From positions 64,001 to 128,000 of IMG/VR virus record IMGVR_UViG_3300042566_002057: a stretch of 64,000 nucleotides of DNA; one strand, 5' to 3'. The stretch's first letter is position 1. Every line of letters begins with the position of its first letter. Origin of the DNA: a virus. The notes below the pieces were generated by a model. That model saw only the letters and a program-made list of their open reading frames with translations. It did not search any database and was not told the DNA's origin. Of this stretch, positions 9,213 through 58,894 are shown one piece after another. The position numbers were made by a program, and so were the translations under genes.

Positions 9213-9944
9213 TTATAAAAAGTGATGCGTGATGACTTTACTTAGATCGGTTGAAACCATACTAGATTTAAGAACACTATATGATTCATCACTACATTTG
9301 ATAAACTCTACTTCACCTCTTGCCAAAGTAACTACATCACCGTTTTCCTCATCAACATAATCTTCTAACCAAAATCCTAAAAGTGGTCTAAACTCAGTTG
9401 CCTGATAAACTCGTTTTAGAACATCAACAATTTCTGGTAAATCTTTTTTATCAAAATCACCAATTGAAAACATCATTATTGGATAAGCTTTGATTTTACC
9501 ATTTTCAATATTTTCAATAAATAATTCATCTTTTGTTTTATTAGTTAATCCAGATTGTCTTATCTTAGATACTGAATTTTTAACATCATCTAAAAAGATA
9601 TATTCTTTTCTATTATCAAGTATTTTTTTGTTAAGAGGGGTATCTGGATTGCCAAATGTAAGTGATTCAGGATTTAAAAAAAGTTCTTCCCATGTTTGGC
9701 CAAGTAATTCATCTGGTTTTCTAAATTCCCAATTTTCTGGATAACTTGTCATATCATAATATAAGTCAGATTGAATTTGTCTAGTCCACATATAAGGAAA
9801 ATAAAGATATCCTGAGTCAATAAATTCACATTTAGAAATAATATTATCATCTAATAATTCAATTAAAATATCTTTTATATCTTCTGGATTAGCGAATATT
9901 TGGGTATTAGACTCAAATAATTTATATGACTTAAGAAATTTCAT
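9213..9944 (-). CDS. Hypothetical protein with N-terminal capsid-targeting-like tag
   Basis: Starts MKFLKSYKLFES. Confidence 0.6.
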   Translation of the reverse strand: MKFLKSYKLFESNTQIFANPEDIKDILIELLDDNIISKCEFIDSGYLYFPYMWTRQIQSDLYYDMTSYPENWEFRKPDELLGQTWEELFLNPESLTFGNPDTPLNKKILDNRKEYIFLDDVKNSVSKIRQSGLTNKTKDELFIENIENGKIKAYPIMMFSIGDFDKKDLPEIVDVLKRVYQATEFRPLLGFWLEDYVDEENGDVVTLARGEVEFIKCSDESYSVLKSSMVSTDLSKVITHHFL

Positions 9945-10922
9945 TTATAAATTGAGTAATATTTTAACAGTGTAGTCATATACTTCATAGTTTTCAGTAT
10001 CAAATCCTCTATTACCTCTTGAAACATCAAATATTACTTCTTCATAATCTAAAGTTGGTAAAATTGTTGGAAGAACTTCATCTAAGTCAGACTCTAGTTT
10101 TAATAAATTCATTTTACCTGTTGTGTGTGAATCGTGATAACCACCTATATTTATAGTGACACACGGTTTATACATTTCTAAAATTTTAGGTATAGAGTAT
10201 TCTTTTAATTCTTTAATATCTCTTTCTGTGATAGTTACACTACGTTTCTCATCACCCTTAAAAGTAGCACCAGCATAAATACCCATTTCTTTGTAATCAT
10301 CTATATTAAAGTTTTGACACTGCCATTTCTTATCAGTAACATAATAACTTTCATCACTTTGTCTTAAAAAGTAGGATGGATAAGAACCAATATTAAGTGT
10401 TGGAAAAACTATATCTTTTATGATACTTATAATAATTCTCATTTTAGTTTTATCATCTGTTTCTTTTACAGAAAGTAAACCGTTATATTTATATTGAGAT
10501 GATTTTTCATAATTCTCTACATCACCATAAGCTATACAACACATTGTATACTTTTGTTTTTCTGAAGGTAGTAAATCATAAACATCATACATTCTATCAT
10601 TAATATATTCAACATCGACTTTATCAATCGAATCAAACATTTTATCAACTAATGTCTCAATCTTATCATACCAACCTTCTCCGATAAAATGGTCAGACCA
10701 TTTTTTTACAGACTGAAAAGTAACTGGTTGTGAACCACCTCTACTCCATTCCCAAGACTTAAGATCTTCGATCCAATCGTGAATTCCATATGAGTTATTT
10801 GACTCAAATATTTGATATTTTTTTAAGTATCTCATTCTATCTCTAATTAGTATCTGGATAACTTCTTCTTTAGTTAAAGTTTTAGAATTCAAACTTTCAT
10901 TTATTCTCTTTAGGTATTTCAT
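9945..10922 (-). CDS. Hypothetical protein with two tandem N-terminal tags
   Basis: MKYLKRINES at aa 1 and MRYLKKYQIFES at aa 30. Confidence 0.6.
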   Translation of the reverse strand: MKYLKRINESLNSKTLTKEEVIQILIRDRMRYLKKYQIFESNNSYGIHDWIEDLKSWEWSRGGSQPVTFQSVKKWSDHFIGEGWYDKIETLVDKMFDSIDKVDVEYINDRMYDVYDLLPSEKQKYTMCCIAYGDVENYEKSSQYKYNGLLSVKETDDKTKMRIIISIIKDIVFPTLNIGSYPSYFLRQSDESYYVTDKKWQCQNFNIDDYKEMGIYAGATFKGDEKRSVTITERDIKELKEYSIPKILEMYKPCVTINIGGYHDSHTTGKMNLLKLESDLDEVLPTILPTLDYEEVIFDVSRGNRGFDTENYEVYDYTVKILLNL

Positions 10923-11461
10923 CAGATACTAAATTTAGTTTTTGTACCATCTGGTTTAGAATAAACTATATTAGTCACATTTTTTACTTGATATTTATAA
11001 TCTGATTTAACATATTTTTTACCTGTTCCTTTATTAACATAAGCAATCGTGATGTGTGGCTTATAATCAGGAAACTCATTTGAGTTAGGAAACTCAGATA
11101 ATTTATTGTGTAACTCTAAAAGAGTACCATCTGGTCTTACATTGAATTTAACAACATCATACTTTTCATTCTCAAAGATATCAATACCATCAACTTCAAT
11201 ATTAATATCACTATTGAAATTATCGAATACTGATTTTACCATTTCATCTGTTACTTCTTCATGTAGACCGTAAAGTATAGTAACATGTGGATTTTTTTGT
11301 ATACTGTGAGTAGAGTCACCTTCTTCTTGATAAACATCTTCAGTATCAATTGATGATGTTATTTCATCCCAATTGCTTATTGGAATTTCAACCATTACAC
11401 AACCATACTTATAGCCGTTTATTGATTCATTGATAAACTGTATGTAACTTTTAATTTTCAT
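10922..11461 (-). CDS. 2H phosphoesterase (T4 gp57B/Acb1-like) with N-terminal tag
   Basis: Two HxT motifs, PHVTILYG and YKPHITIAY; starts MKIKSYIQFINES. Confidence 0.8.
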   Translation of the reverse strand: MKIKSYIQFINESINGYKYGCVMVEIPISNWDEITSSIDTEDVYQEEGDSTHSIQKNPHVTILYGLHEEVTDEMVKSVFDNFNSDINIEVDGIDIFENEKYDVVKFNVRPDGTLLELHNKLSEFPNSNEFPDYKPHITIAYVNKGTGKKYVKSDYKYQVKNVTNIVYSKPDGTKTKFSI

Positions 11462-11832
11462 TAGAATGGATAATCTTCTTTTTTCTCTTCAGTTGCAAAT
11501 ATTTGTATATTAATAGAAGAAACAAATATTTCTGTTGATAATTTATATTCTGGGTACCTTTCAGACAGTCTATTTAAAGCAACTTCTACTTCTTGTAGTA
11601 AATTACTATTATACTTTGTGTAATTTATAAAGTTAAGTAACTCAGAATTTTTAATCTTAGTGGTTCTTCTTAGAACTCTATCATCAGGTTTTGATTTAAC
11701 TTTTACATTTATAGTAACGTATGTTTGATAGTCACTTATTTCAACTACACCGTTATCTATAAGTTCAGCAAAACAATCGTAAATAAAATCATAGTCTGTT
11801 TTACTTTCATTAATTCTTTTCAGATATTTCAT
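11461..11832 (-). CDS. Hypothetical protein with N-terminal tag
   Basis: Starts MKYLKRINES. Confidence 0.6.
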   Translation of the reverse strand: MKYLKRINESKTDYDFIYDCFAELIDNGVVEISDYQTYVTINVKVKSKPDDRVLRRTTKIKNSELLNFINYTKYNSNLLQEVEVALNRLSERYPEYKLSTEIFVSSINIQIFATEEKKEDYPF

Positions 11833-11850
11833 AAAGGTATATATTAAACA

Positions 11851-11880
11851 TTGTCAATTAAAAAAGAGTTTGTATCTTTG
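11851..11880 (+). promoter_or_regulatory. Class A Bacteroidota housekeeping-sigma promoter TTG-N19-TATCTTTG
   Basis: TAnnTTTG -7 element also at 18251, 21346, 25614, 27312, 37218, 53195, 57791, 58189, 60678 (+) and 46963-46970 (-); several have TTG 17-21 nt upstream. Confidence 0.8.
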
Positions 11881-11897
11881 TAGAAATAAAAAAGAAT

Positions 11898-12151: not shown

Positions 12152-13408
12152 CTAAATATTTTCATTATATTGAATATTGAAGCCTAAAACATCATAAAAA
12201 TCAATAAAAATAGGAATTTCGATATCTGGTAGTGTATATAATGGTTGTGGATCATATATATTGTTTAACTCAACAACCACACTTCCATTTGATACGTAAG
12301 TAGATACTACACCTACTTCTACATCAGCTTGTACCTGTGCTTTTGTAAAATTATATCTAGCATCCGCATCATTGCTAAAATTGAATATTACTTTAGCATT
12401 TTCAGTATTACCTTGTTCTATTGTGTAATTAACAAATTCAGTTGCTTGAGGTAGAGCATCAGGTGTATAATCATTTCCATCAAAATCATGAATTACAATT
12501 GTACCATCACCTTGTACTGGTGAGTGATCTATATCATTTATAACTTTAACAAAATGTAATTTATCAAATCTATCATAAAGAAGTTGTATATTGTGATTAT
12601 CATAGAAAGGTATTTCTTTTGTTCTACTTGTTGGAATATGAGAAACATAAGAAATATCAGTTACAATACAATTAATATCAAAGTCTGTGCTTTCTTCAAG
12701 TAATTGTTGACCACTTATTCTGATTGGTTCGTCAATGTGATATCTAGTAGTTCCATCTTTTCTAAGAAATTCTTCAAACATGTCTATTCCCTTATCACCA
12801 TCAGCTAGTATAGTAAGTATAGAAGGTTCAACACTTTTAAGAGCGTATGATGTAAATGTAGTGACACCACCTATATTATTTACACTCTGTACCTTTATAA
12901 GAAATGTATTTGGATCTTCCGTATTTCCCTGACCAATATTAAAATCAATCAAATCATTTATGACATAACCACTACCAGAATTTATAACATTTGCAATATC
13001 AACCGCCAAACCTGAACGATTGAGTAATAATATAGCTTTGAATCCTATTCCTGACCCAGAAGTTGTTGTTGAATATGTAGTATCAAACTTATAACCTGCA
13101 CGACTAAACCTCTCTATACTCCAAGTAGTTACGGCACCTAAAGTTCCACCGCTTTGCTCAGTGTCAACCCCTACTAAATTCACATAAAATGTTGCATTAT
13201 CACCAGTTCCTTTTGATATACCTAGTACCTCGTGTCTTACTTCTGGTAATGTTGTATCAATTCCACCATTAACAATTTCTCTAAATAAAGTACCCTCTGG
13301 CACAGATGCTGTTAGTGCGGTAACCCAGCCACCATAAATATCACCCTCAAGTACTTGAGCAAATCTTGATGTTTCTTTAATATTTCTATAATCTTTTGCC
13401 ATATTCAA
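12152..13408 (-). CDS. Putative virion fibre/decoration protein, paralog of 13431-14897
   Basis: Shared YGG..LT(V/A)TAS.P, LYDRFD..IND, P..LP..TEF and F.D.LG..IQ blocks; INSGSGY-type repeat. Confidence 0.5.
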   Translation of the reverse strand: MNMAKDYRNIKETSRFAQVLEGDIYGGWVTALTASVPEGTLFREIVNGGIDTTLPEVRHEVLGISKGTGDNATFYVNLVGVDTEQSGGTLGAVTTWSIERFSRAGYKFDTTYSTTTSGSGIGFKAILLLNRSGLAVDIANVINSGSGYVINDLIDFNIGQGNTEDPNTFLIKVQSVNNIGGVTTFTSYALKSVEPSILTILADGDKGIDMFEEFLRKDGTTRYHIDEPIRISGQQLLEESTDFDINCIVTDISYVSHIPTSRTKEIPFYDNHNIQLLYDRFDKLHFVKVINDIDHSPVQGDGTIVIHDFDGNDYTPDALPQATEFVNYTIEQGNTENAKVIFNFSNDADARYNFTKAQVQADVEVGVVSTYVSNGSVVVELNNIYDPQPLYTLPDIEIPIFIDFYDVLGFNIQYNENI

Positions 13409-13430
13409 ATAATTTTAAGTATTTTCTTTT

Positions 13431-14897
13431 CTAATTTGGTTCTCTTAATGTTGTAAATGCTATGGATGCTTTCTCACCGACTACACCTTCAGAACCCTGC
13501 CATTCAGTAGTAGCACTAAATCCTAAAACTTCTTCAGAACCATCCATTAATTTTGTTATATAACCACCGTTGTAACCTCCATTTGTTGCTCCATCACCAC
13601 TCATCCAATAAATTACGACTATATTGTCTTCTCCGGTCCATTGGTAATTCTCAATCTGAAAGAAAACATATCTCTCACCATTTACGATTTCAACAATACC
13701 AGATCTTCTTTGTGAATTAATATCAAGTATTGATGTATTGAATTGTTCATTTACAATTAAATTATTCTGAATCCAAGTATTTGATATAGTTTCGACATTT
13801 GATGTTATTATAGTGGCTGCTACAACAAAACCTCCATTAAGAACTTCTTGTGTAACATTACCAGCACCTCCTGATGTTAAGTGGAATGGTAGACCAATAC
13901 GAGATATAATCTTGCCTGGTGTAACTCCAAATGATTCGACTTCAGTTTTCTTATAAAGAGCAACATGATAAGATTCATTTAAGAAATAAGGTGAACCAGT
14001 CCATTCTATATAATTTGGATAAGACCAGTTATCACCTGTTCCTCCTGGATTTGGAATTGTTACTTCAACACTATCTTGTATTAAGACTCCGAGTATATCT
14101 GTAAACTCTAAGTTAAACGTATAAGTCACATCATACTCAATTTGGTCAAGTGTAATAACTCTAAGTGATGTTTGATATACTGAACTACTATCAATTCTTA
14201 ATGTAGAATTTTCTGAAAAAGTGGCACTCACAGAAACTATAACACCTGGTGCGTTGTTATAAGTAAATAATAATTCTGTTGAACTTACTCTTTCAAAGTC
14301 AATAAATTCAGTTGGTTCAGGTAATTCAGTTGGTATATAAGCAACTCCATTAAAGTCAACATTTTCTATTGTACCATCATCATTAATTATTCTAGTATAA
14401 ACTTTTCTATCAAATCTATCATATAAAATTTGATGATTGAATGATGAACCATAGTTTCTATCTGGATAAATTGAAGTAACTGTAGCTTGTATATCTTTAC
14501 CCGCATTTTCTTGACTAAATCCTGACATATCAATTATTAAATTCTCACCAATATTATAGTTGTAGTAATTAGTATAAATAAGTTGTGGATTAGATAATTG
14601 TAAATAAGGACTAGCTGATATAAATCTCCAATCTGTATAAAAAACCGAATCATTCACCACATACGAATCATCAGCATTAAACTCTAGGGTAAGAACAGCT
14701 CCTTCTCCATTACCATCACTACTTGAAGCCTGTACTTCTACATATGTAGGATTTTCAGAAATTGTTCCTAAATCATATACAATTTCTTTTGATGGTGCTG
14801 AAGCAGTAACTGTTAATATCTGTCCTCCGTAGGTATAAGCACTTTTAAGAAGTACTGTTCTACTACCTATATTTACTTCTTTGTAATTCTTTGGCAT
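13431..14897 (-). CDS. Putative virion fibre/decoration protein, paralog of 12152-13408
   Basis: Same conserved blocks plus an extra C-terminal domain; late-type promoter. Confidence 0.5.
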   Translation of the reverse strand: MPKNYKEVNIGSRTVLLKSAYTYGGQILTVTASAPSKEIVYDLGTISENPTYVEVQASSSDGNGEGAVLTLEFNADDSYVVNDSVFYTDWRFISASPYLQLSNPQLIYTNYYNYNIGENLIIDMSGFSQENAGKDIQATVTSIYPDRNYGSSFNHQILYDRFDRKVYTRIINDDGTIENVDFNGVAYIPTELPEPTEFIDFERVSSTELLFTYNNAPGVIVSVSATFSENSTLRIDSSSVYQTSLRVITLDQIEYDVTYTFNLEFTDILGVLIQDSVEVTIPNPGGTGDNWSYPNYIEWTGSPYFLNESYHVALYKKTEVESFGVTPGKIISRIGLPFHLTSGGAGNVTQEVLNGGFVVAATIITSNVETISNTWIQNNLIVNEQFNTSILDINSQRRSGIVEIVNGERYVFFQIENYQWTGEDNIVVIYWMSGDGATNGGYNGGYITKLMDGSEEVLGFSATTEWQGSEGVVGEKASIAFTTLREPN

Positions 14898-14933
14898 ATT
14901 CTTATATTGTTTTTTAATTCTATAATCTATATA

Positions 14934-15419
14934 TTATTTTACTAATTCATATTTTTCTACTAACTCTGAGTGAATTAGCTGTGGAATCCTTTTCCACTCT
15001 TTGTACCAAATGTTACATACATAAACATCTTGTCCATTATCTTTAATTATTTCAACAACATCATACTCAGCTGATGGAAAAGGACCAATTGGTTTAGTAG
15101 TAACTTTACCAATTATTGGCATCTTAGTCACATCATCACCACTATAAGAGAGTGATTCAACATATTTAATATCAAAATTTTCATCTGAAATTTCTTCTTC
15201 ATCTTCAATATCAAAGTCAAACCCCATACTAACTAAAGAACTCATAGTTGCGTCAATCATATCTAATTTAGCACCTCTTTCTTTCATATAATTCTCAAAA
15301 AATTCAGGGGTTATTATTTGACCATCAGCTCTCATCCTTTTGAGTTGCGGTAATAAATCATTAGCAATGTCATCTGCCAAGTCAAAATAAGTTTCATTAA
15401 ATTTTCTTAAGTATTTCAT
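14934..15419 (-). CDS. Hypothetical protein with N-terminal tag
   Basis: Starts MKYLRKFNET. Confidence 0.6.
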   Translation of the reverse strand: MKYLRKFNETYFDLADDIANDLLPQLKRMRADGQIITPEFFENYMKERGAKLDMIDATMSSLVSMGFDFDIEDEEEISDENFDIKYVESLSYSGDDVTKMPIIGKVTTKPIGPFPSAEYDVVEIIKDNGQDVYVCNIWYKEWKRIPQLIHSELVEKYELVK

Positions 15420-15421: not shown

Positions 15422-15832
15422 TTATCTAAAAATTTTTGAATTAAATATCTTATCTGATAATAAATAATGAAAAGATTGACTTACTTCTTCTTTACTTAAA
15501 TCAGAATACTCTGTATCTAAAAGAGATTTAATCTTAACATAAAGACCAGATTGTCTATCATTAAGTTTATAACCATTTTCTAAATACTCTTCTTCTGATA
15601 TTATTTCTTCTATTATTTTTTCTAAGAAGTTATTAGGATCAGATATACGACCACTATCAATAACTTGTTGAAGTTCGTCAGATGTAAAGGTTAATTCATT
15701 ACATAAGTCACCTAATTCAGAAAGAATATCTTCATTAGAAAGTTTATCAAGATTGATAATTTTATCAGCCATTTTAATGAATTCTTCAATTCTATCAAAT
15801 GATGCTTCGTTAAATCGTTTTAAGTGTTTCAT
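15422..15832 (-). CDS. Hypothetical protein with N-terminal tag
   Basis: Starts MKHLKRFNEA. Confidence 0.6.
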   Translation of the reverse strand: MKHLKRFNEASFDRIEEFIKMADKIINLDKLSNEDILSELGDLCNELTFTSDELQQVIDSGRISDPNNFLEKIIEEIISEEEYLENGYKLNDRQSGLYVKIKSLLDTEYSDLSKEEVSQSFHYLLSDKIFNSKIFR

Positions 15833-15852: not shown

Positions 15853-16107
15853 TTAAAGTTTTCTCAACATATTCAATATTAATGTATTATCATAAACATC
15901 AGTATCTTGAGAATCACCTCCTGACCACCAAGTTACATCACTTTTATAATCAGATACTTTGTTAATTGTCATAGTTCCATATTCATAAGGTACTTCAAAT
16001 CCAAATTCATCACCTTTAAATCCGTCAATCTCTTTAGAAAAATTACATAGGTCATCAAATGATAATTTTTCATCAACGGATTCGTTATATGTTTTTAAGT
16101 GTTTCAT
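15853..16107 (-). CDS. Hypothetical protein with N-terminal tag, flanked by the 33-bp repeats
   Basis: Starts MKHLKTYNES. Confidence 0.6.
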   Translation of the reverse strand: MKHLKTYNESVDEKLSFDDLCNFSKEIDGFKGDEFGFEVPYEYGTMTINKVSDYKSDVTWWSGGDSQDTDVYDNTLILNMLRKL

Positions 16108-21291: not shown

Positions 21292-21357
21292 AAAATATTT
21301 TTAATTTTGTTTATATATTAATTTGGTGAATCTACTTATTATGACTATATTTGTAAT

Positions 21358-23347: not shown

Positions 23348-23362
23348 AAGTTAATTTTATTT

Positions 23363-25844: not shown

Positions 25845-26255
25845 TTAATTCAATATCACCGGGTCAAATATGAAAGCTACACCTTCTATCTTATTATTAT
25901 TGATAAACTCTTCATTATCTACATAGTTGATGAATTTATCATAACCACCTAAGCTCATAAATTCTTTAATTTTACTACTATATGGTCCATAAAAATGGAC
26001 ATGAATATTTGTTATCTCCCAATTATTTGAGCAAATGTAATCTTTTGCTCTTTCAAAATATTCCCTAACATCTGACCATTGGAATAAATTATCATTTGAT
26101 ACTTCTACACAAAACATATCAACTCCTTGTGGTCTCATATCAATATCAACTTGATAACCAGAATCTTCAAGTTCAAGAAACATATCTTTAACATCTAATT
26201 CTAAATCATGATTGTATACGTTCTCAAATAAAATATACGGTTTTAAATGTTTCAT
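25845..26255 (-). CDS. Hypothetical protein with N-terminal tag
   Basis: Starts MKHLKPYILFEN. Confidence 0.6.
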   Translation of the reverse strand: MKHLKPYILFENVYNHDLELDVKDMFLELEDSGYQVDIDMRPQGVDMFCVEVSNDNLFQWSDVREYFERAKDYICSNNWEITNIHVHFYGPYSSKIKEFMSLGGYDKFINYVDNEEFINNNKIEGVAFIFDPVILN

Positions 26256-28619: not shown

Positions 28620-29942
28620 ATGAAAATATTCAACTACATAGAATTCCTAAACGAAAGTGTTTCACTTAATAAAATTCCTACTTATGAGGAATCAGTTGAA
28701 ATGTGCTCTGGAGAAGATGCTACATTTTATGAGTCAAAATATGAAGTTGAAGGATTCCCAGTTTCTGTTTTTAACTATCGTTTAGCTCAATACAAAGACT
28801 TTGATATGCCTGTTCCATCAAAACCAGAATTAAAAGGTTTTGAGATGCGAGGTCTTACTTTTGTATTCAATAAAGATGGTTCTCTTTATAACAGATATGT
28901 ACTACTTGAAAAGTTCTTTAACTTGAATCAAGTTCCTAACTCTATGTATTCTGTTGTTAAAGATTACAAAATCAGATATGTAAATAATAAAGAAGATGGT
29001 TCAATTGCTACTTTTGTGAAATTACCAAACGGTAAAGTAGTTGGTAAATCTAAAATGGGGTTTGATAACGATCAAGCGAATGGTATTAATAAGATATACA
29101 AAACTAATCCAGATGTTAAGTCATTTGTTGATTGGTCACTAAATAATAATATTGTTCCTATATTTGAGTATGTTGCTCCACATAATAGAATCGTTCTTAG
29201 GTATTTAGAAGAAGAGCTTATTCTTTTAAGACTTAGAGATAATAAGACTGGTAGACATATTGATATAAAAGAACATTTAGATAAGATTGGTTCTATCAAA
29301 ATTTCTCCGTTTGAGGATGATAATACTTTAGATGATTTGATTGAAAAGTCAAAATCAGAAGTAGATAAAGAAGGATGGATTGTTCAGTTTGATAATGACC
29401 ATATGGTTAAAATTAAAACTGATTGGTATTTCCAAAGACACGGTTTACTTACAAATGATATTTACAGAGAACATGTTATCATTGGTTATATCTTAGATGA
29501 TTTGATAGATGATGTTATTGCTCAAGTTCCAGAAGATGAAAAAGAAGCACACGAAAGAATTAATAAAATAATCTCAATCGTTAAAAAGGATTTAAGAGAT
29601 AAGGTTGATGAAATTAATAAAGCTTATAAAGAATTTGTTAATTCTGGTATGAGTAAAAGAGATTATGCTATAAATCATAGAGTTGGTAATCCTAACTTTG
29701 CTTTTGTTATGAATATGGACAAAGCAGAACAATTAAAGAAAATGTCTAAAGAAGAGATATTGGATATCTATGATGATATGGAATCCTATGAGTCCTCATT
29801 AAAAAGATGTGAACCATTTGAGATGGCTAAAGAATTTATTAGAAACCAAACTAAGAGATTAGAAATTGCTAGAGAATGGTTAGAATCAAAAGATTCTACT
29901 CTATTTTTTAGAGACCCTGAAGAATCTGAAGATGATAATTAA
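28620..29942 (+). CDS. RNA ligase, T4 Rnl1-like, with N-terminal tag
   Basis: EMRGLTF, KFFNLNQ, KEDGS (motif I), FEY..P.NRIV, EGWIV, KIKT.WY; starts MKIFNYIEFLNES; class C promoter. Confidence 0.85.
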   Translation: MKIFNYIEFLNESVSLNKIPTYEESVEMCSGEDATFYESKYEVEGFPVSVFNYRLAQYKDFDMPVPSKPELKGFEMRGLTFVFNKDGSLYNRYVLLEKFFNLNQVPNSMYSVVKDYKIRYVNNKEDGSIATFVKLPNGKVVGKSKMGFDNDQANGINKIYKTNPDVKSFVDWSLNNNIVPIFEYVAPHNRIVLRYLEEELILLRLRDNKTGRHIDIKEHLDKIGSIKISPFEDDNTLDDLIEKSKSEVDKEGWIVQFDNDHMVKIKTDWYFQRHGLLTNDIYREHVIIGYILDDLIDDVIAQVPEDEKEAHERINKIISIVKKDLRDKVDEINKAYKEFVNSGMSKRDYAINHRVGNPNFAFVMNMDKAEQLKKMSKEEILDIYDDMESYESSLKRCEPFEMAKEFIRNQTKRLEIAREWLESKDSTLFFRDPEESEDDN

Positions 29943-29978: not shown

Positions 29979-30776
29979 GTGAAATATCTAAAGTCTTATA
30001 AAATATTTGAGAGTTACAATACATTCGGAACTAAATCTATAACTGAAAAAGAGTTTGATCAGATTAGAAAAGAGAATTGTAAAAACTGGACTAAAGCTGA
30101 AACTGAAATATTCAGAGGTATGCCAAATTTAGGTGATTATTTGTTAGTAGATCCACTAAAGGGTGACTTTAGAAGTTCAATTGAAGATACTAACATTCAT
30201 TTAGACCTATTATCAAATCTACCAAGTTGGAAAGATTATCCTAAATATGAAAGATGTATTATAGGTGGAACTCGTGGATCAGCGACTGGTACTTATGGAG
30301 AAGCTGTCTATGAAATGATACCTTTTGATAATACAAAAATTGCGGTTTGTCCAGAATCAACTATTTGGGAATCATTTGGTAATGATTATGACAGATGGGG
30401 AGGTGACATCTATTTAGTTGAACATTTTTTAGACTCAATTGACTTAGATACAAGTTGGAATCAGATTGGTGGTGGAACTATTGAGACTAAATTAAAATCT
30501 TTAGGTAATAGTTTTCACGGAAGTAAAATTTCAGAAATACCTAATAAAGATCAAGAATCAGTAGATAATTTTTTAATGAGACATGCTGAATTTAGTTGGA
30601 AAAGACCAAATGAAATTACTGGTGAAGATTGTTTTAATTTTATAAACAACAGTCTTTTTAATCCAAAAGTTAGAGGTTTTCAATTATTAAACTATGACCA
30701 AAACTTCAGTACAGAAAAAGGTAAACAAGTGTGGACAGAAGGTCCGGTATTACTTATCAAATCACATTTAGTTTAG
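29979..30776 (+). CDS. Hypothetical protein with N-terminal tag
   Basis: Starts MKYLKSYKIFES (GTG start); class C promoter. Confidence 0.6.
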   Translation: MKYLKSYKIFESYNTFGTKSITEKEFDQIRKENCKNWTKAETEIFRGMPNLGDYLLVDPLKGDFRSSIEDTNIHLDLLSNLPSWKDYPKYERCIIGGTRGSATGTYGEAVYEMIPFDNTKIAVCPESTIWESFGNDYDRWGGDIYLVEHFLDSIDLDTSWNQIGGGTIETKLKSLGNSFHGSKISEIPNKDQESVDNFLMRHAEFSWKRPNEITGEDCFNFINNSLFNPKVRGFQLLNYDQNFSTEKGKQVWTEGPVLLIKSHLV

Positions 30777-31057
30777 AAACTCTTGAAATCTTTTACACCA
30801 CCGATGTTTTGTAAAATTGGTGCTGTGTTTTTTATACCAGTAACTGGTCTTACTGTCTGAACTTTATCTACATTTATAACTGAATTCATTTCATCGGGAT
30901 ATTCTGTAAAGTAATCAATAAGAAATTGCTCATTTTCCTCTTCTGATTTTTCATCATCCCACATACTACGAAGTTGAGTTTTATTTAACTCAACATAATC
31001 TCTCACCTTTTTATTTAAATCAGGATTCCATTCAGACCATTCTTTTATGAACTTCAT
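30773..31057 (-). CDS. Small late hypothetical protein (weak N-terminal tag)
   Basis: Starts MKFIKEWSEW; class C promoter. Confidence 0.5.
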   Translation of the reverse strand: MKFIKEWSEWNPDLNKKVRDYVELNKTQLRSMWDDEKSEEENEQFLIDYFTEYPDEMNSVINVDKVQTVRPVTGIKNTAPILQNIGGVKDFKSF

Positions 31058-33478: not shown

Positions 33479-34714
33479 TTATAGTGAGTCGTAGTCTCCG
33501 CATGTACTTCTACATTCTCTGTCTAATCCAGAGTAATCAGAATCGTTTGTAATAACATTTTCATCTAAATTTAAGTAACTCATAGTATCCATATAAGGAT
33601 AGTAATCCCAATCAACATCATCAGCGTGTACAACAATTCGACCTAATTTTCTATTTGTTCCATCTGTAATCTGTTCCCATTGTTCCATAGATTGAGAAGT
33701 TTTATACCACCATCCATTTTTCTCAGCAAATTGCTTAAACAGTTCTACATCAGAATCGTGTGTGGTGTAGATTCTATCCATAAATTTAATAGGACTTCCC
33801 TCAAACTCAGCATCCCATAGAATTGCTCTACCTCTAATTTTGTCTGAAACATATTTATCACCAGTGATTGTGCCATTTTCTGAATAAAGAATGACCATAG
33901 ATACTTGTTTATTGTTACAATAAATGTCAAAGTAAGATGAATTGACACTTGCCATACAAGAATTATTAAGAGTACCACCACCACTTTGATAATTATCTTC
34001 ATCATACCAATTTGAAATATCATCACCTTTAACAACATCAAATTGTTTAAGAGCATCTTTAGCAAAATCGTAAGTTGCTTTATATTGATTAGTAAAATCT
34101 TCGATATCTTTGTCAGTGAATGCCACATTAGCACTTCTAAGTAAAGCTCTCACAAGTCTACCAATTTTCATATTGTTTCTTGAAGTTGACCAAACAGCTT
34201 TTATTTCTGGATCATTTACTTCTAAACAACTTTTATTTAATACAGTTAGTCTTGGATTTTCAACATCATACTCTTGAAATAGTACAAAAGTTTTTCCAGA
34301 AACTGAACTTATTGTTTCAGATAAAATAGTACCAAATATTCCAATATCAGGTGCCCAATTTGGTCTACCTTCTTTATTATAACCAAGTGCTTCAAATATT
34401 TTATTATTTTTATCACTATGAGTTAGATACTTACCTGATTCAACAACCATCCAAGTTTCTGGTTTACCAGCGTAAAGCTCTTGAGCTTTTCTATCTGGTG
34501 TAAAACTAACAGCATCTTTCTCATCCGTTATGTCAATAAAGTTATATTGTACTGGATAATCCTTTGAGTTTATTTTAATTAGTTCTGATGAAATCTTGTT
34601 ACTATTAAACTTATTAATTAAGTTTATAAACTTTGATGAGAATACTACTTTAGATTCAAGTAGTAAATCATATATTTGGTTTTCTAATAAAAATTCGTTA
34701 TATCTATTAATCAT
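33479..34714 (-). CDS. Hypothetical phage protein with N-terminal tag
   Basis: Starts MINRYNEFLLEN; contains NSCM, GRAILW, FMDRIY and YPYMDT motifs; class C promoter. Confidence 0.55.
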   Translation of the reverse strand: MINRYNEFLLENQIYDLLLESKVVFSSKFINLINKFNSNKISSELIKINSKDYPVQYNFIDITDEKDAVSFTPDRKAQELYAGKPETWMVVESGKYLTHSDKNNKIFEALGYNKEGRPNWAPDIGIFGTILSETISSVSGKTFVLFQEYDVENPRLTVLNKSCLEVNDPEIKAVWSTSRNNMKIGRLVRALLRSANVAFTDKDIEDFTNQYKATYDFAKDALKQFDVVKGDDISNWYDEDNYQSGGGTLNNSCMASVNSSYFDIYCNNKQVSMVILYSENGTITGDKYVSDKIRGRAILWDAEFEGSPIKFMDRIYTTHDSDVELFKQFAEKNGWWYKTSQSMEQWEQITDGTNRKLGRIVVHADDVDWDYYPYMDTMSYLNLDENVITNDSDYSGLDRECRSTCGDYDSL

Positions 34715-36628: not shown

Positions 36629-37192
36629 CTATTCAGTTTCTATCTTGAATTCTTCATCATTATCATCAAATGTTTCATCTAACTCTAACTTTAAGTCAAT
36701 AATTAAATCTTCAGAAATTTTCTTAATCTCTGTGTTTTTAGATATTTGACCCATTATCTCAAAGTTAGCAGCGATATCATACTTTTTAAATTTGATATAA
36801 CAATTTTTTATATCGTCTATTGTGAAATCTTTGTTTGGATCTTTTGGTAAAGCTTCTTTTAAGTCAATCATTATAATCATAGTGTACATAAAATCAGCAT
36901 CTTGAAATGTTACACTTAACGAATCATATAACTTAGAGTATTTAGAAATTTCAGAGTTTTCTAATCTTAAACCTAAGTCTTTAAAAGACATCTTTGACTT
37001 ATCTTTAGCGTCTTCTTTAGCTTTCTTTATTGATTTTGTTGTTTCTTCTTCTGGCTCTCTATCCGATCCTTCATACTCAAACATCTTATCAATCTTTCTT
37101 TTAAGTTGACTTAGTAAAGTAGAGATATAAGTTTCTGGAGTATCATTCAATAATTCCTCTTTGATAAACTCTGTAAATTTAATAACTTTCAT
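36629..37192 (-). CDS. Hypothetical protein with N-terminal tag
   Basis: Starts MKVIKFTEFIKEE; class C promoter. Confidence 0.6.
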   Translation of the reverse strand: MKVIKFTEFIKEELLNDTPETYISTLLSQLKRKIDKMFEYEGSDREPEEETTKSIKKAKEDAKDKSKMSFKDLGLRLENSEISKYSKLYDSLSVTFQDADFMYTMIIMIDLKEALPKDPNKDFTIDDIKNCYIKFKKYDIAANFEIMGQISKNTEIKKISEDLIIDLKLELDETFDDNDEEFKIETE

Positions 37193-44540: not shown

Positions 44541-46082
44541 TTACTTAACTACTAAGTGTGGAGATGACCAAAGTGATTCTGACTTTGCAAATTTTACAAT
44601 TGTAGAAACAAATCTATTTCTGGTGATTGAACTTTGTGTGAGCAACCAATCTAAAACTAAGTAAGATTGTAATCTTGAGTTTATTTCTTGAGTTTTAGTT
44701 TCCGATTCTAAATCAACACTAACACACTGAGCTATCTCTGGTGAAGTAAAATTGTGTGTAGACAAAATCTCTCTGATTTTTTCCATATCTTTTTCTCTTC
44801 TGACTTTCTCAATCAAATTGTACCATTGATTAGGAACTATTGTTGAAAGTAACGAACCAGCTTTTCCAGACATATGTTGTGCTTTTTTAGAACCTTTCAC
44901 CTCAACTGAAATAGCAGATACTGGACTAGTATCAAATGTTCTAAGTTGTAACTCACCGTCTCTATAAAACTTAGAGTTCTTAGAGAACTTATATCCGAAT
45001 TTTATAACAACAGTTTTTATTTTATTATTTGATTTATAACCTAAAAACTGGTGTTGAACATCATCTTCTTTCATATTAACAGTTCTCACTCTGTTTTCAC
45101 CAGTTTGTTGTTGTTTTAAAGATACACCAACTATACCATTTCTTTTTTCAATACATGCATAAAGGTAATTGTTCAATTCGTCTAAATCATTAATATTGGT
45201 ATCATACCACTTAGTATTGTAAATTGGTTCTTTACCATCTTTAAATGCTATCCAAATATCACTTGGATTCCATTTAGATATATTTACAGTATCAGGAAAC
45301 TCATAAATAGATTTTTCTTTGTCATAAGGATCTAAATTTCTATACATTTCTATCTCTTCATCTAAGTAACTTTTAGCCATTTGAGCAATTAAAAGGTTAG
45401 TTGAATTTTTATAAATTGCTTCTACATTAAATATATTCTTATCGATGAATGTTATTAATTCCTTAGACTGACGAATCATTGAGTTATACAAACCTTTATT
45501 TGCTATAAACTCCTCAAATCTTCTTCTAAAATCACCTCTCTCATTGTCTGAAATTATAGCAAATCTTTTTTCACTATCTTCTTCGCTGTATAAATAATCC
45601 ATTTCAATTTTTCCTCTATTAGAGTAAATATCGACTTTGTGACCAGTTAATTCCCATATTGTTGATGCAAAAATAATAATGAATGCTGTTTCTCTAAAAT
45701 GCTCAGCTCTTTTTGTAACACCTTGTCTACCTTTTTGTCTTAGTATAGTAGTTCTAATTCCTTTCTTTACTATAGCGAATGGGTATTTTCTTGATGTTGT
45801 TTCATAAACCATAATTTTACTAAAAGCAGATTCATTATCAAAGTCTAATAACTTCTTTAAGTCTTTAAATTCAAGTGATTTCACCGAAGATGGTCTTATG
45901 TGTAGAATTTCAACATCATCATTTGGTAAATAATCTATAGGAACAAAGGTCAAGTTTTGACTTATTTCAAATCTTTTAGCATATGTTTGACCGTCTCTGG
46001 AGAACTCATATTCAATACCAGATTTACTATCATCGATAGTAGCTTCATTAATAGAAATGTAATTATTGAATTTATTTATCAC
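44541..46082 (-). CDS. Putative PD-(D/E)xK-like nuclease with N-terminal tag
   Basis: KWNPSDIW...IVGVSLK; starts MINKFNNYISINEA; class C promoter. Confidence 0.45.
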   Translation of the reverse strand: MINKFNNYISINEATIDDSKSGIEYEFSRDGQTYAKRFEISQNLTFVPIDYLPNDDVEILHIRPSSVKSLEFKDLKKLLDFDNESAFSKIMVYETTSRKYPFAIVKKGIRTTILRQKGRQGVTKRAEHFRETAFIIIFASTIWELTGHKVDIYSNRGKIEMDYLYSEEDSEKRFAIISDNERGDFRRRFEEFIANKGLYNSMIRQSKELITFIDKNIFNVEAIYKNSTNLLIAQMAKSYLDEEIEMYRNLDPYDKEKSIYEFPDTVNISKWNPSDIWIAFKDGKEPIYNTKWYDTNINDLDELNNYLYACIEKRNGIVGVSLKQQQTGENRVRTVNMKEDDVQHQFLGYKSNNKIKTVVIKFGYKFSKNSKFYRDGELQLRTFDTSPVSAISVEVKGSKKAQHMSGKAGSLLSTIVPNQWYNLIEKVRREKDMEKIREILSTHNFTSPEIAQCVSVDLESETKTQEINSRLQSYLVLDWLLTQSSITRNRFVSTIVKFAKSESLWSSPHLVVK

Positions 46083-46111
46083 ATACTATATATAAAATTT
46101 GTGTTATTAAA

Positions 46112-49117: not shown

Positions 49118-49783
49118 TTACTTTAAGGGAATTTCCGGATCAATCGAAAACCTATCATTTAAGTAAGCTTTAAGTTCATTTTCAATATAATTATCGGGAA
49201 CTTCTTGGTCTAAGTTTTCAAGAGCCATTTTTTCAGAAAGATATAGTGAAAATTGTTGTAACACTTCTGGTTTGATTGCTTCAACAATCCTATCAGATAC
49301 AACAAATGCTCTAGTGAATCTATCTTTTTCATGTGTAAAATCACCTTCAGCAACTGACATAGTTGCGTCAATTACCTTCTTTAAGAAGGCTGGATAATCA
49401 TTACCTGGATCAGCTAATATTGGAGCAATCACTTTATTAAATGCTCTTGATGAGCCAAGAATATAACCTATAATTGCTACAATCGGAAAGAAAGGAGCTA
49501 AAGCCATTGGTATAATTCTATGAACCGCTTTTATGATTCCGGTTTTAATATCGGTTCTTCTTTTAGCATCTCTAGCATCATGAAAAAGAGCATTTAACAT
49601 TCCAAATGTAAATCTTCTACCAGTATCTTGTAAGTATTTAGCTAAACTACCACGGTGAGCATGATAAAGATGTCTATTGATTTCATCTTCATCAGTAACT
49701 CCCAATCTTAACAACTCAGCTCTAATGTTATCGTCAAATTTTTCTAAAATCATAAATTCTTGATAACTCTTTACACGTTCCAT
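49118..49783 (-). CDS. Hypothetical membrane-hairpin protein with N-terminal tag
   Basis: Starts MERVKSYQEFMILEK; hydrophobic IIPMALAPFFPIVAIIGYILG. Confidence 0.55.
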   Translation of the reverse strand: MERVKSYQEFMILEKFDDNIRAELLRLGVTDEDEINRHLYHAHRGSLAKYLQDTGRRFTFGMLNALFHDARDAKRRTDIKTGIIKAVHRIIPMALAPFFPIVAIIGYILGSSRAFNKVIAPILADPGNDYPAFLKKVIDATMSVAEGDFTHEKDRFTRAFVVSDRIVEAIKPEVLQQFSLYLSEKMALENLDQEVPDNYIENELKAYLNDRFSIDPEIPLK

Positions 49784-49889
49784 AGTGTATATATTAATTT
49801 ACAAACATTTAATATTAAGTTAATATCCCCACTATAAAAAACCAGACAATTCTTATCAATTTTATTTAATAAAAAAATAAATAGATAAG

Positions 49890-50660: not shown

Positions 50661-52001
50661 ATGAGAGAAACTTCAATTACTAACTTTCTAGCAAAAGAAT
50701 ATAAAGAGTTTGCAATGTACTCGATTGAGGGTAGAGCTATACCTTCTATTGTTGATGGTTTTAAACCTACCCAAAGAAAAATTATTCACGTTTCAAGTCA
50801 GATTTGGAAGACCGGAAATGAAAAAACTCTTAAAGTATTTCAGTTAGGTGGTAAAGTTGCATCTGATGCTTTTTATCATCACGGAAACGCTTCATTAGAA
50901 AATGCCATTATTACGATGGCTCAGAGATTCAAGAATAACGCACCTCTATTAGAAGAAGAAGGACAGTTTGGTTCATTAAGATCCCCACAAGCTGGTGCTC
51001 CTCGTTATATCGGAACTAAACTCACAGAGAACTATAGATTACTTTACAAAGACTTTGAGTTATTAGAATATAAACAAGAAGAAGGTGAATCAATTGAACC
51101 AAAATTCTTTTTACCTATTATTCCAACTGTACTTATTAACGGTTCATCTGGAATTGCCGTAGGATTCGCATCAAACATTCTAAACAGAGATGTTAAAAGT
51201 ATAATCGAATGTTGTCAAAAGATTTTAACAGATAAAAAAATATCTGAAGTTAAACCATCTTTAACAGGATTCACTGGTGAGTTCATACAGGATAAAGAAA
51301 ATCCAAAAAGATGGATTATTAGAGGTAAGTTTGTAAGAGCAAACACTTCAACTGTTAAAATATCAGAACTCCCACCATCAATGACTTATGAAAAATACGA
51401 AGAGATTTTAGACAAACTTGTTGATGACAAATTAATTGTTTCTTATGATGACAACTGTAAGGATAACATAGATTATACAATAAAGTTTACACGTTCTGAT
51501 TTAGAGAAATTAGATGACGAGAAACTAATTAAGTTATTGAAATTAGAAGAATCATCTACCGAAATATTCTCAACACTAGATGAGACTGGTAAATTAATGA
51601 TATTTGAGTCGACATCAGATATGATCACTTACTTTGTTAATTTCAGATTGACATATTATCATAAGAGAAAACAATTCTTATTAGATAAATTAAACAGAGA
51701 ACTAAAAATACTTTCTAATCGTGGTCGATTTATTAAAGCAATAATTGATGGTAAATTAAAAGTTAACAATGTTGCTAAGTCTCAAATCATCGAAGGAATT
51801 GAAGCGATGGGTTTAGATAAGATAGATGACTCATACGATTATCTTTTAAGAATGCCTATCTACTCCTTAACAAAAGAGATGTATGAAAAGTTAAAAGAAG
51901 ACTTTAAATTGAAAAAAGAAGAGATTACAAAATTAGAAGCAACCGATCCAAAAGATATGTATATAGATGATCTTAATGAGTTAAAAAAGAAATTTAAATA
52001 A
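50661..52001 (+). CDS. Type II DNA topoisomerase DNA-cleavage subunit, T4 gp52-like
   Basis: RAIPSIVDGFKPTQRK, YHHG, APRY catalytic Tyr, GIAVGF. Confidence 0.93.
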   Translation: MRETSITNFLAKEYKEFAMYSIEGRAIPSIVDGFKPTQRKIIHVSSQIWKTGNEKTLKVFQLGGKVASDAFYHHGNASLENAIITMAQRFKNNAPLLEEEGQFGSLRSPQAGAPRYIGTKLTENYRLLYKDFELLEYKQEEGESIEPKFFLPIIPTVLINGSSGIAVGFASNILNRDVKSIIECCQKILTDKKISEVKPSLTGFTGEFIQDKENPKRWIIRGKFVRANTSTVKISELPPSMTYEKYEEILDKLVDDKLIVSYDDNCKDNIDYTIKFTRSDLEKLDDEKLIKLLKLEESSTEIFSTLDETGKLMIFESTSDMITYFVNFRLTYYHKRKQFLLDKLNRELKILSNRGRFIKAIIDGKLKVNNVAKSQIIEGIEAMGLDKIDDSYDYLLRMPIYSLTKEMYEKLKEDFKLKKEEITKLEATDPKDMYIDDLNELKKKFK

Positions 52002-52303
52002 TGGAAAGAATGAAAAGATATGAGGATTTCAAGAATGAAAGTAATGATACTGACTACCTCACTAAAGAAGAACTTGAAAAAGTAAAGTGGACTAGATATA
52101 AAATTATAGTTCCGACTCAAGAAGATAAAGAAGAATTAGAGAAAGCGTTTGAGCACATTCACTATTCTGATATTGATACAGATAATATTGCTGTTAATCA
52201 ATTAGCACATGAATATCTAACTGAAGAAGTAACAGGTGATACTCAAACCAAAAATAATATTATAGTTGACGAAGAACTATATAATAAATTAAATAAAAAC
52301 TAA
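52001..52303 (+). CDS. Hypothetical protein with N-terminal tag
   Basis: Starts MERMKRYEDFKNES. Confidence 0.55.
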   Translation: MERMKRYEDFKNESNDTDYLTKEELEKVKWTRYKIIVPTQEDKEELEKAFEHIHYSDIDTDNIAVNQLAHEYLTEEVTGDTQTKNNIIVDEELYNKLNKN

Positions 52304-55310: not shown

Positions 55311-55312
55311 AA

Positions 55313-57766: not shown

Positions 57767-57803
57767 TTATTTCTTATCATATTTTTTTATTATATTTGTA
57801 ATT

Positions 57804-58178
57804 ATGAAAAAAGAAGGAATTGAAAGTATGGTAGATAAAGTAGTTTTAGAATCTCTAAATGAGGGTTATTCTATTAAGAATACTCAATTAAAACTACAAG
57901 AGAGAATAATTAAATTCAGAAACATACTTATCAGAGATAATGTTGATTTAGAACAAACTGTACTTACTGCAAATGAAGATTGGCAAAAAATAACCAATAC
58001 TCGACATAGATTTGCCGCATATTATATTTGTTTTTGTTGTAAACGTATAGTAGACTTAGAATGGTTCTCAAATAAGAAACTTACCTTCTATAATTTATCA
58101 AATAGTAAAATGTTAAGTTTACTAAAGTTTAGAGATAAGTTATCAAAAGAAAACGCTGTAGAAAATTCACCTTTTTGA
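57804..58178 (+). CDS. Hypothetical early protein
   Basis: Class A -7 element at 57791-98. Confidence 0.5.
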   Translation: MKKEGIESMVDKVVLESLNEGYSIKNTQLKLQERIIKFRNILIRDNVDLEQTVLTANEDWQKITNTRHRFAAYYICFCCKRIVDLEWFSNKKLTFYNLSNSKMLSLLKFRDKLSKENAVENSPF

Positions 58179-58201
58179 TTATTTTTTGTATCTTTGTATT
58201 A

Positions 58202-58435
58202 ATGAAATTAAGTAATCAAACAAAATTTATTCTCTGGTTAATATTAGACAAATATGATGGTCATAGAGACTATCTACCGTTTTGTGATTCATTATCTAGA
58301 ATAATTCAAGAAAGGCCAAAAGGATGTGATTTATTAATTGTTTACAATCATTTAAGAAAAATAGACAGGTCTGATAAAATAGGAATTGATTATTCTATTG
58401 GTCCACATATTGAGTATAATTTGTTTGCAATCTAA
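58202..58435 (+). CDS. Small hypothetical early protein (start probably ATG 58202)
   Basis: TATCTTTG at 58189-96 immediately upstream. Confidence 0.5.
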   Translation: MKLSNQTKFILWLILDKYDGHRDYLPFCDSLSRIIQERPKGCDLLIVYNHLRKIDRSDKIGIDYSIGPHIEYNLFAI

Positions 58436-58510
58436 ATTTTCATGCAACATCATGATCCATATCTAATATAAATTCGTCGGTTTTTTACAGTATTTAACAC
58501 TGTGGATTTT

Positions 58511-58894
58511 TTACTGAAACGATGATGGTAAAGTATATTTCTCAGCCTTAAGAAATTTTATCAAAAGAAATATAATACTGGCTCCTGGTATTAATGTGAG
58601 TACAGTAAGACTAATTGTCTTAAATATATCTTTTAATTGGTCATAAATCTTTTTTCTTTGTTCTTTATTTAATTCTATTTCATCTTTACTAGCTCTTACG
58701 ACTAGATTAAAAGCTTCTTTTGTTTCTTTACTTTCATTTTTAATGCTATCAATAAATTTAAAAAAATTCTTTTTCATTTCTTTATAAAAGTCAGAATAAA
58801 TATCACCCATCTTAGCGATTGGATCAACCGGCATAAACATCATATCCATTGTCTCATTGATGTTAAAATTCTCAAATGTTTTAAGGTGTTTCAT
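58511..58894 (-). CDS. LETM1-like membrane-hairpin protein with N-terminal tag
   Basis: Starts MKHLKTFENFNINET; QLKDIFKT..LTVL.LIPG...LPSSF. Confidence 0.55.
   Translation of the reverse strand: MKHLKTFENFNINETMDMMFMPVDPIAKMGDIYSDFYKEMKKNFFKFIDSIKNESKETKEAFNLVVRASKDEIELNKEQRKKIYDQLKDIFKTISLTVLTLIPGASIIFLLIKFLKAEKYTLPSSFQ

Follow-up and report, generated by a model that had tools for sequence, protein, structure and literature searches.

A short N-terminal leader resembling the T4 capsid-targeting sequence is shared by many predicted late proteins of a large uncultured Bacteroidota phage

Introduction

In phage T4, IPI, IPII and IPIII, which are internal proteins, begin with the capsid-targeting sequence (CTS) MKTYQEFIAE↓A (the arrow marks a cut, here and below), which is cut by the prohead protease gp21. 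T4 genetics has assigned targeting to residues 4 and 7 of the CTS, and processing to residues 8 and 10 (PMC9026906). Among the phiKZ-like phages, 201phi2-1 has been described as having 19 processed proteins and SPN3US as having 8 among its roughly 50 head proteins (PMC9026906, PMC5694885), and the propeptides of the phiKZ/SPN3US type are mostly 80-160 residues long, without a common short leader (PMC5694885). Our full-text literature searches led to the T4 CTS (PMC9026906), the phiKZ/SPN3US propeptides (PMC5694885) and the surveys of huge phages, and to no publication that joins these subjects or connects huge phages with CTS tags. Here we analyze a window of 64,000 nucleotides (i.e., the whole stretch of DNA studied, positions 64001-128000 of the 151,950-bp IMG/VR virus contig IMGVR_UViG_3300042566_002057), in which a first-pass annotation had noted about 17 unrelated late proteins sharing an N-terminal tag that resembles the T4 CTS. 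Since about one seventh of the proteins carry this leader, which closely resembles the T4 CTS and ends like the predicted cut sites of the head protease, the cargo that the phage takes into its head probably amounts to dozens or even more than 100 different proteins.

The contig has a GC content of 30.7% and a CheckV completeness of 68%, and its promoters comprise the Bacteroidota-style TAnnTTTG box and a second box, (A/T)ATATATA; this DNA occurs in at least 14 lake runs. At the DNA level, two uncultured huge phages, LR756502 (642 kb) and LR756504 (636 kb), are the only relatives among those deposited; as regards the capsid lineage, huge Bacteroidota phages and the group of Lak, PTm1 and PAU stand nearest. 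The source is a large uncultured Bacteroidota phage. LR756502 is complete and syntenic with the contig over tens of kilobases (proteins 47-63% identical), and was taken whole as an independent test set of 980 N-termini.

Results

Definition of the Tag and Its Frequency

The aligned tags start with M-(K/R)-(Y/H)-(L/I)-(K/R)-x-(F/Y) and occur in two forms: a short one, in which this segment is directly followed by N-E-(S/A/T/E) (e.g., MKYLKRFNES), and a long one with 2-5 further residues ending in (F/I/L)-(N/x)-E-(S/N/A) (e.g., MKIKSYIQFINES). The leader has a length of 9-16 residues, with the predicted cut Glu at residues 8-13 in most tags. In the Glu-anchored logo, position P2 is N (44%) or F (33%), P1' is S (40%), and P3 is mostly I/F/L/Y, a hydrophobic P3 being required by the rule used to anchor the sites.

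Membership was set at a score of at least 10 bits on a profile hidden Markov model (HMM) of the tag. All 17 start coordinates of the first-pass annotation are true starts of open reading frames (ORFs) with the quoted residues, two of them being GTG (29979 and 46082), and the tag was recovered on 16 of these N-termini (14.6-29.7 bits on a profile of the 30 contig tags, Table 1). The remaining ORF, 30773..31057 on the minus strand (MKFIKEWSEW), which had been listed as weak, is not a member: it scored 5.8 bits, below the mark of 10, and lacks the h-x-E↓S end (h, hydrophobic). The profile found no members in the window beyond these 16, and 14 further tagged ORFs lie elsewhere on the contig, giving 30 of 205 ORFs.

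In a non-circular test with an HMM built from LR756502 only, at least 10 bits were reached by 24 of the 205 contig N-termini, by 0 of 627 windows at internal Met residues and by 1 of 2050 shuffled N-termini. Applied to LR756502 at the same mark, the contig-built HMM recognized 159 of the 980 N-termini; among 3047 windows at internal Met residues it picked 7, and among 9800 shuffled N-termini 10 (Fisher p 9e-92). In addition, 149 of 1765 ORFs were tagged in 80 capsid-centred IMG/VR contigs of relatives. The genome-wide motif scan that had been proposed at first pass thus yields 30/205 ORFs on the contig and about 159/980 N-termini in the 642-kb LR756502, and the initial tally of about 17 proteins is too low for the lineage. 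The tagged genes of LR756502 stand in dense islands, with about 25 within one 20-kb stretch (20001-40000; 1-100000 generally), which recall the hypervariable internal-protein loci of T-even phages.

Resemblance to the T4 Capsid-Targeting Sequence

The proposed likeness to the T4 CTS is real and extends further than noted at first pass: the T4 leader MKTYQEFIAEA scores as a tag (12.4 bits on the tag profile; 0.8 when reversed), and the tag model recovers ipI, ipII and ipIII. For the second comparison, two tag profiles were run over the T4 genome at all ATG starts that open 40 codons or more (1580 candidates), and ipIII, ipII and ipI, annotated as internal virion proteins, were among the best matches, beside gp61.1 and nrdC.4. 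T4 gp61.1 (NC_000866 18966-19130), a hypothetical protein of 54 amino acids (aa), starts MKTFKEFIKED, reaches scores similar to those of the internal proteins (11.1 and 12.6 bits) and is a possible unrecognized CTS-bearing protein.

The long form of the tag conserves the positions that determine targeting and processing in T4 (an aromatic residue, a second aromatic at +3, I/L at +4 and Glu at +6). The tag further shares with the CTS its place at the extreme N-terminus, a length of about 10-16 residues, the basic start, the residue pattern and the small residue after Glu; as with the T4 internal proteins, the bodies behind it are otherwise unrelated and fast-evolving, and the head module of the relatives is T4-type (portal gp20, gp21-family protease and gp23 capsid). 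The differences concern the scale (3 internal proteins, Alt and a few core proteins in T4; here, 30 tagged proteins on a fragment of 152 kb and, in a relative of 642 kb, about 159), the preferred motif (h-N-E↓S here, (L/I)-x-E↓A in T4), the presence of the short form MKYLKRFNE↓S, and the fusion of protease and scaffold into one protein of about 700 aa with tandem repeats; the tag system is also known from genes alone.

phiKZ, 201phi2-1 and SPN3US are likewise large phages with many head proteins and a gp21-related protease that cuts after Glu. The gp175/gp245 protease of these phages cuts at (S/A)-x-E, whereas the tags have a hydrophobic P3 and Asn or Phe at P2, and the capsid lineage is a different one. 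The tags, being uniform and 9-16 residues long, do not fall into the class of long propeptides.

Head Module and Shared Cut Motif

The head module was taken from relatives, because the contig lacks one; it is present in the syntenic LR756502 and in 80 IMG/VR relatives. LR756502 encodes a T4 portal (PF07230, 1e-57) and a gp23-type capsid protein (PF07068, 4e-28), and between the two genes a 699-aa protease-scaffold protein (225272-227371). The latter is regarded as a protease because of a bridge through Tenacibaculum phage PTm1 (Shirahamavirus), the nearest cultured relative of the head module: its N-domain shares 35% identity (3e-24) with the protease of PTm1, for which the PF03420 match, at 45.7 bits, is above the cut-off. 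In PTm1, the genes of the portal, of a fused “prohead core scaffolding protein and protease” and of the capsid protein stand in the same order, and its scaffold and capsid propeptide carry x-N-E↓S/N motifs. Protease-scaffold fusions of about 700 aa also occur in the other relatives (ORFs starting MKPV, contigs L047-L126).

The protease domain is followed by 9-11 tandem repeats with an exact period of 14 aa, N-I-S-Y-S-E-Y-I-A-E-N-L-D-K (NISYSEYIAENLDK), each of which holds a T4-CTS-like Y-x-E-Y-(I/L)-A-E; in some relatives this reads Y-Q-E-Y-I-A-E, which is almost the T4 CTS core. The density of Y-x-E-Y-[IL]-A-E is 14 per 1000 aa in the protease-scaffolds vs. 0.01 elsewhere. In 57 distinct protease-scaffolds of relatives, we counted 223 h-N-E-[STAN] sites vs. 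41.7 expected by shuffling (observed/expected 5.3), and the h-N-E sites lie at conserved places, e.g., where the protease domain ends (KVLNE↓SL), at the repeat start and in the C-terminal part (QLNE↓SS); in the rest of the proteome the motif is at chance level.

The capsid protein reads S-E-Y-A-E-(F/Y)-H-S-I-N-E↓N-A-Y near residue 43, and E43-N44 is invariant in 30 sequences, a set that reaches down to 32% identity and includes PTm1. A profile of these 30 sequences reaches T4 gp23 (7e-8), whose mature chain, as found in the PDB, lacks 65 residues of the full-length protein; phmmer searches of the PDB with the capsid and protease proteins of a relative gave no match. By these comparisons, one motif, h-N-E↓S/N, closes both the tags and the predicted processing sites of scaffold and capsid.

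Late Expression and Selection on the Peptide

In LR756502 and six inspected relatives, (A/T)ATATATA precedes the portal, protease-scaffold and capsid genes, about 20-35 nucleotides (nt) before the ATG. A gene was assigned to a late-box unit when it had its own box or followed a boxed gene of the same strand at a distance of no more than 40 nt. With this promoter inference, the earlier description of the tagged proteins as late is supported: 29 of the 30 tagged genes of the contig and 144 of 157 in LR756502 belong to late-box units, compared to 32% and 27% of the untagged genes (p 7e-12 and 2e-54, respectively). Host-type TAnnTTTG boxes are depleted before tagged genes (2/157 vs. 48/781 in LR756502). 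The distribution of the boxes supports the view that the tagged genes are expressed late, during prohead assembly.

The late box ends 4-6 nt before the start codon of many tagged and untagged genes (e.g., 11833-11850, 29960-29978, 37193-37210, 46083-46100 and 49784-49800), so that their mRNAs may be leaderless or nearly so, unlike the head genes of the relatives, which have A-rich leaders of 20-35 nt. The tag might then reflect a constraint on mRNA or translation, in that (near-)leaderless transcripts need a particular 5' coding sequence; the distance from box to ATG is 4-6 nt in 64 of the 82 boxed tagged genes of LR756502, and two tagged genes of the window start with GTG right behind the box. 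However, late genes with the same spacing (42 untagged ones with 4-5 nt in LR756502) have unrelated N-termini, some tagged genes lie inside operons without a box of their own, and synonymous codon use in the tags is that of untagged N-termini, varying as elsewhere. What is conserved is an amphipathic residue pattern with an invariant Glu, the spacing between the two halves of the tag being variable. Such a constraint would also leave unexplained that PTm1, whose GC content is 30%, whose host belongs to the Bacteroidota and whose portal/protease-scaffold/capsid module is homologous, has no tagged ORFs (0/309, used as a negative control). We therefore consider this explanation very unlikely, and read the patterns as selection acting on the peptide, not as a by-product of the nucleotide sequence.

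The lack of tagged ORFs in PTm1 implies that only the huge-phage branch gained, or kept, the tag system. In two other phages only the region near the capsid gene was sampled (0 of 31 ORFs tagged in Lak-A2, 1 of 38 in LR756500), which is too few to judge whole genomes.

The Tag as a Modular Addition

A common N-terminus may also be inherited, if a single gene family expanded and diverged until the N-terminal segment alone remained recognizable. There are indeed a few tandem paralogue groups among the tagged genes (e.g., genome 147278-149663, and the pair 38756/97479), and tagged genes cluster in islands. After removal of the tags, however, BLASTP found only three small paralogue groups among the 30 proteins, so “unrelated”, as the proteins had been called, is correct for most of them and not for the members of these groups; moreover, tagged proteins represent folds and Pfam families unrelated to one another. 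When the tagged RNA ligase is aligned to T4 Rnl1 (2c5u), its residue 24 falls on residue 8 of the T4 enzyme, and the tag is therefore an N-terminal extension of about 16 aa, an extra piece before a complete T4-like enzyme. Descent from one family appears to us scarcely tenable.

Among the 16 tagged proteins with an orthologue in LR756502, 10 have one that passes the mark and 5 others have one that is visibly tag-like, whereas only 2 of 90 untagged proteins have a tagged orthologue (p 1.5e-8); tag status is a stable trait inherited with each protein. Among 68 aligned sequences homologous to the tagged 2H phosphoesterase, F9 does not vary, Y6 and E12 are conserved in at least 90%, and position 10 is I/L/V; the tag residues are as conserved as the catalytic HxT motifs, and the positions between them vary. 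In an AlphaFold2 model of this enzyme (computed from the alignment), residues 1-16 have a predicted local distance difference test score below 50, with a short helix at 7-13, and the confident domain begins at about residue 19. The tag of the 2H enzyme is thus modelled as a conserved yet unpacked linear motif.

Nature of the Tagged Proteins

Housekeeping domains are rare among the tagged proteins: the 148 tagged LR756502 proteins matched only 26 Pfam families, compared to 85 for a length-matched untagged set, and about 90% of the tagged proteins have no known domain. The tagged families include PPK2, phage lysozyme, RNA ligase 1, NUDIX, methyltransferases, SET, HNH, GNAT, DHH, 2H/Acb1-like and Toprim-like; those of the untagged set include ribonucleotide reductase, tRNA synthetases, thymidylate synthase and DnaJ. 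Sheath, portal, capsid and a gp25-like baseplate match (weak, E 2.7e-4, below the cut-off) also have untagged N-termini. The named cargo in the window consists of the 2H phosphoesterase and the RNA ligase. None of the tagged proteins in the window matched a nucleotidyltransferase family, and a tagged CCA-adding enzyme is therefore not confirmed.

The large share of domain-less proteins would fit a different role, in which the tag is cut at the prohead core and most of the cargo are not injected effectors, being instead expendable core, filler or assembly proteins (degraded or expelled at maturation) or internal structural proteins (which stay with the DNA). The acidity of the tagged proteins, like that of scaffold proteins, and the tag-like repeats of the scaffold itself point in the same direction. 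Yet intact enzymes carry the tag (2H with its HxT pairs, Rnl1, PPK2, NUDIX, lysozyme, SET and GNAT), which would be pointless as filler, and internal cut motifs of the tagged proteins are at chance, not enriched as in the scaffold. We regard this alternative as improbable.

A C-Terminal Peptide and General Sorting

Another peptide, R-x-x-K-(I/L)-x-x-(I/L/F), stands at the C-terminus of 16 proteins on the contig and 98 in LR756502 (about 10% of its proteins). Only 1 of 980 proteins carries both the N-terminal tag and the C-terminal peptide vs. 16 expected (p 4e-7), and 3 of 94 genes with the C-terminal peptide are in late units. From this exclusivity and the late-unit bias it follows that the two tags split the proteome by expression class; the C-terminal peptide may serve non-late proteins as a signal for turnover or for the binding of a partner.

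Because of this split, we kept the explanation that the N-terminal tag is an address for other machinery of the late phase, e.g., the phage DnaK/DnaJ/GrpE, a compartment or membrane site, or a timed protease. The very large number of tagged proteins and the second tag, exclusive of the first as in a general sorting code, would agree with it; the window encodes DnaK (31433-33319) and DnaJ (22280-23347), and the basic-hydrophobic start MKYLKRF presumably resembles a DnaK-binding pattern. An address of this kind leaves unexplained that the tag has its end motif in common with conserved sites of the scaffold and the capsid propeptide, that it fits the determinants of the T4 CTS and that it is tied to the promoter of the head genes, and we think such an address unlikely, to about the same degree as a filler role.

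Tagged Genes in the Window and Their Neighbours

The tagged genes and the genes with the C-terminal peptide are listed in Table 1. The first four tagged genes form one run, whose late box lies upstream of the gene that starts at 11832. Upstream of the RNA ligase 1 gene (28575-28619), a late box and a host-type TAnnTTTG box (TAAATTTG) are both present, so this gene may be expressed early and late.

Table 1. Genes of the window with the N-terminal tag or the C-terminal peptide (positions in the window; the arrow marks the predicted cut).
Position	Strand	Feature	Length (aa)	N-terminus	Score (bits)	Remarks
9213..9944	-	tagged gene	243	MKFLKSYKLFE↓S	22.5	no Pfam match; closes the four-gene run
9945..10922	-	tagged gene	325	MKYLKRINE↓S	26.5	LR756502 orthologue 47% identical, also tagged (MNMKIKTYSLFLES)
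10922..11461	-	tagged 2H phosphoesterase (LigT/Acb1-like)	179	MKIKSYIQFINE↓S	29.7	PF13563 at 3e-11, PF23474 (Acb1) at 4.5e-7; predicted structure matches the fold of Usb1, LigT and Acb1
11461..11832	-	tagged gene	123	MKYLKRINE↓S	24.0	first gene of the run; late box 5 nt before ATG, upstream sequence TTTAATATATACCTTT-ATG
14934..15419	-	tagged gene	161	MKYLRKFNE↓T	21.0	
15422..15832	-	tagged gene	136	MKHLKRFNE↓A	24.1	no Pfam match
15853..16107	-	tagged gene	84	MKHLKTYNE↓S	25.9	
25845..26255	-	tagged gene	136	MKHLKPYILFE↓N	25.1	syntenic LR756502 counterpart begins MKYLKEYKIFEN
28620..29942	+	tagged T4-type RNA ligase 1	440	MKIFNYIEFLNE↓S	17.8	PF09511 at 4e-17; LR756502 orthologue 61% identical, tagged
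29979..30776	+	tagged gene	265	(GTG)KYLKSYKIFE↓S	28.2	GTG start; late box 4 nt upstream; LR756502 orthologue tagged
33479..34714	-	tagged gene	411	MINRYNEFLLE↓N	19.3	no Pfam match; virus-only family without known domain (Atlas gives viral hypothetical clusters only); paralogue of the tagged 645-aa gene at genome 38756-40693
36629..37192	-	tagged gene	187	MKVIKFTEFIKE↓E	18.9	late box 4 nt upstream; orthologue starts MKIRKFTEFINEE, 59% identical
44541..46082	-	tagged gene	513	(GTG)INKFNNYISINE↓A	14.6	late box 4 nt upstream; no Pfam match
49118..49783	-	tagged gene	221	MERVKSYQEFMILE↓K	20.0	late box 4 nt upstream; SYQEF in the tag, as TYQEF in T4
52001..52303	+	tagged gene	100	MERMKRYEDFKNE↓S	24.1	
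58511..58894	-	tagged gene	127	MKHLKTFENFNINE↓T	24.9	
18646-18987		C-terminal peptide gene				
23363-24251		C-terminal peptide gene				
27741-28136		C-terminal peptide gene				
31068-31298		C-terminal peptide gene				
41003-41203		C-terminal peptide gene				
44132-44509		C-terminal peptide gene				
46975-47217		C-terminal peptide gene				
60657-61163		C-terminal peptide gene				

Between two runs of tagged genes lie two large conserved genes without a family on the minus strand (12152-13408 and 13431-14897), for which the sole leads are weak, i.e., immunoglobulin (Ig), fn3 or cadherin-like domains. A tblastn search with a 488-aa neighbour protein gave no match in cultured and deposited phages, and PHROGs searches with ten neighbouring proteins returned little except a gp32-like single-stranded DNA-binding protein and one “virion structural protein”.

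Contigs from four lake RNA libraries (metatranscriptomes) cover the two large untagged genes best (12152-14897), with the spacer 13406-13441 replaced by a different short sequence (a strain variant). They also touch part of one tagged gene (14866-15225, contigs from three of the libraries with 0-1 differences, a weak signal because DNA carry-over is possible). Most of the tagged genes in 9213-11832 are uncovered; transcript starts cannot be read from such contigs, and gaps in their cover carry no conclusion.

Discussion

We favour, with moderate confidence, the explanation that the tag is a T4-type capsid-targeting propeptide, which would be cut by the prohead protease with the cargo retained in the head, on a far larger scale than in T4. 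The T4 CTS itself is known; what is new is the great expansion of the same kind of leader. The support comes from several independent directions, and each control came out as a CTS function of the sequences would predict.

In the mechanism that we propose, the tagged genes would be transcribed late from the (A/T)ATATATA promoter used by the head genes. The leader, flexible and 9-16 residues long, would form a short amphipathic helix with an aromatic/hydrophobic face (Y/F..F/Y-I/L) and bind the scaffolding core of the assembling prohead, this core being built of YxEY(I/L)AE repeats. The gp21-family prohead protease would cut after the conserved Glu at (F/I/L)-(N/F)-E↓S, i.e., at the same motif as in its own scaffold part and in the propeptide of the capsid protein, and the freed proteins would be kept in the head and delivered to the host along with the DNA. 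The cargo would comprise mostly fast-evolving domain-less proteins, plus enzymes (RNA ligase 1, a 2H/Acb1-like phosphodiesterase, NUDIX, PPK2, lysozyme, SET and GNAT transferases and an HNH nuclease). Binding of the tagged proteins to the core, their cleavage, their retention in the head and their injection are steps that we infer from the genes.

Several observations weigh against a capsid-targeting function. All of the evidence comes from sequence, and the members of the tagged clade are uncultured. Neither a protease nor a scaffold nor a full capsid gene was found on the contig, which is 68% complete, and the LR756502 protease, taken alone, matches Peptidase_S77 over its first 170 residues at 20-23 bits, under the Pfam cut-off. 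HMMER places the capsid INE↓N on I36-F37-E38↓N39 of T4 gp23 and not on its final site E65↓A66; this N-terminal part of the alignment is non-significant alone, so the site cannot be equated with E65↓A66 and is claimed only as lying in the propeptide region. The tagged proteins are more acidic than the rest (median isoelectric point 4.8-5.1 vs. 5.4-5.8), whereas the internal proteins of T4 are basic. Internal h-N-E-S motifs are not depleted in the tagged proteins of LR756502 (observed/expected 1.1); in those of the contig, there is 1 such motif vs. 3.2 expected. Finally, about 16% of all ORFs and about 40% of the ORFs in late units are tagged, and so many kinds of cargo would, to our knowledge, far exceed those of any studied phage.

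A wider proposal, which we put forward only tentatively and consider doubtful as a whole, takes in the C-terminal peptide: huge Bacteroidota phages may sort a quarter of their proteome by two exclusive terminal peptides, the N-terminal tag, on about 16% of the proteins and these all late, loading more than 100 proteins as an injected toolkit made in advance, and the C-terminal peptide, on about 10% and these all non-late, sending others to another partner. If this were true, the toolkit would include enzymes of RNA repair and of the degradation of nucleotide signals, and the injected proteome of uncultured phages would be readable from sequence.

Returning to the capsid-targeting function of the tag, if it works as in T4, the virion cargo of uncultured huge phages could be listed from their genomes only, and the short leader could be a portable packaging tag. 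The CTS-like repeats of the scaffold suggest how a CTS may find the core, a question that still stands for T4. A genome of 642 kb would then account for about 159 kinds of injected proteins, as against a handful in T4, and the tagged enzymes (RNA ligase 1, 2H/Acb1-like, NUDIX, DHH, PPK2, SET and GNAT) suggest pre-emptive tRNA repair and destruction of defence signals. Many of the unknown genes of these phages would, if this is true, be factors for take-over of the host in the first minutes or for counter-defence, rather than late proteins acting inside the cell.

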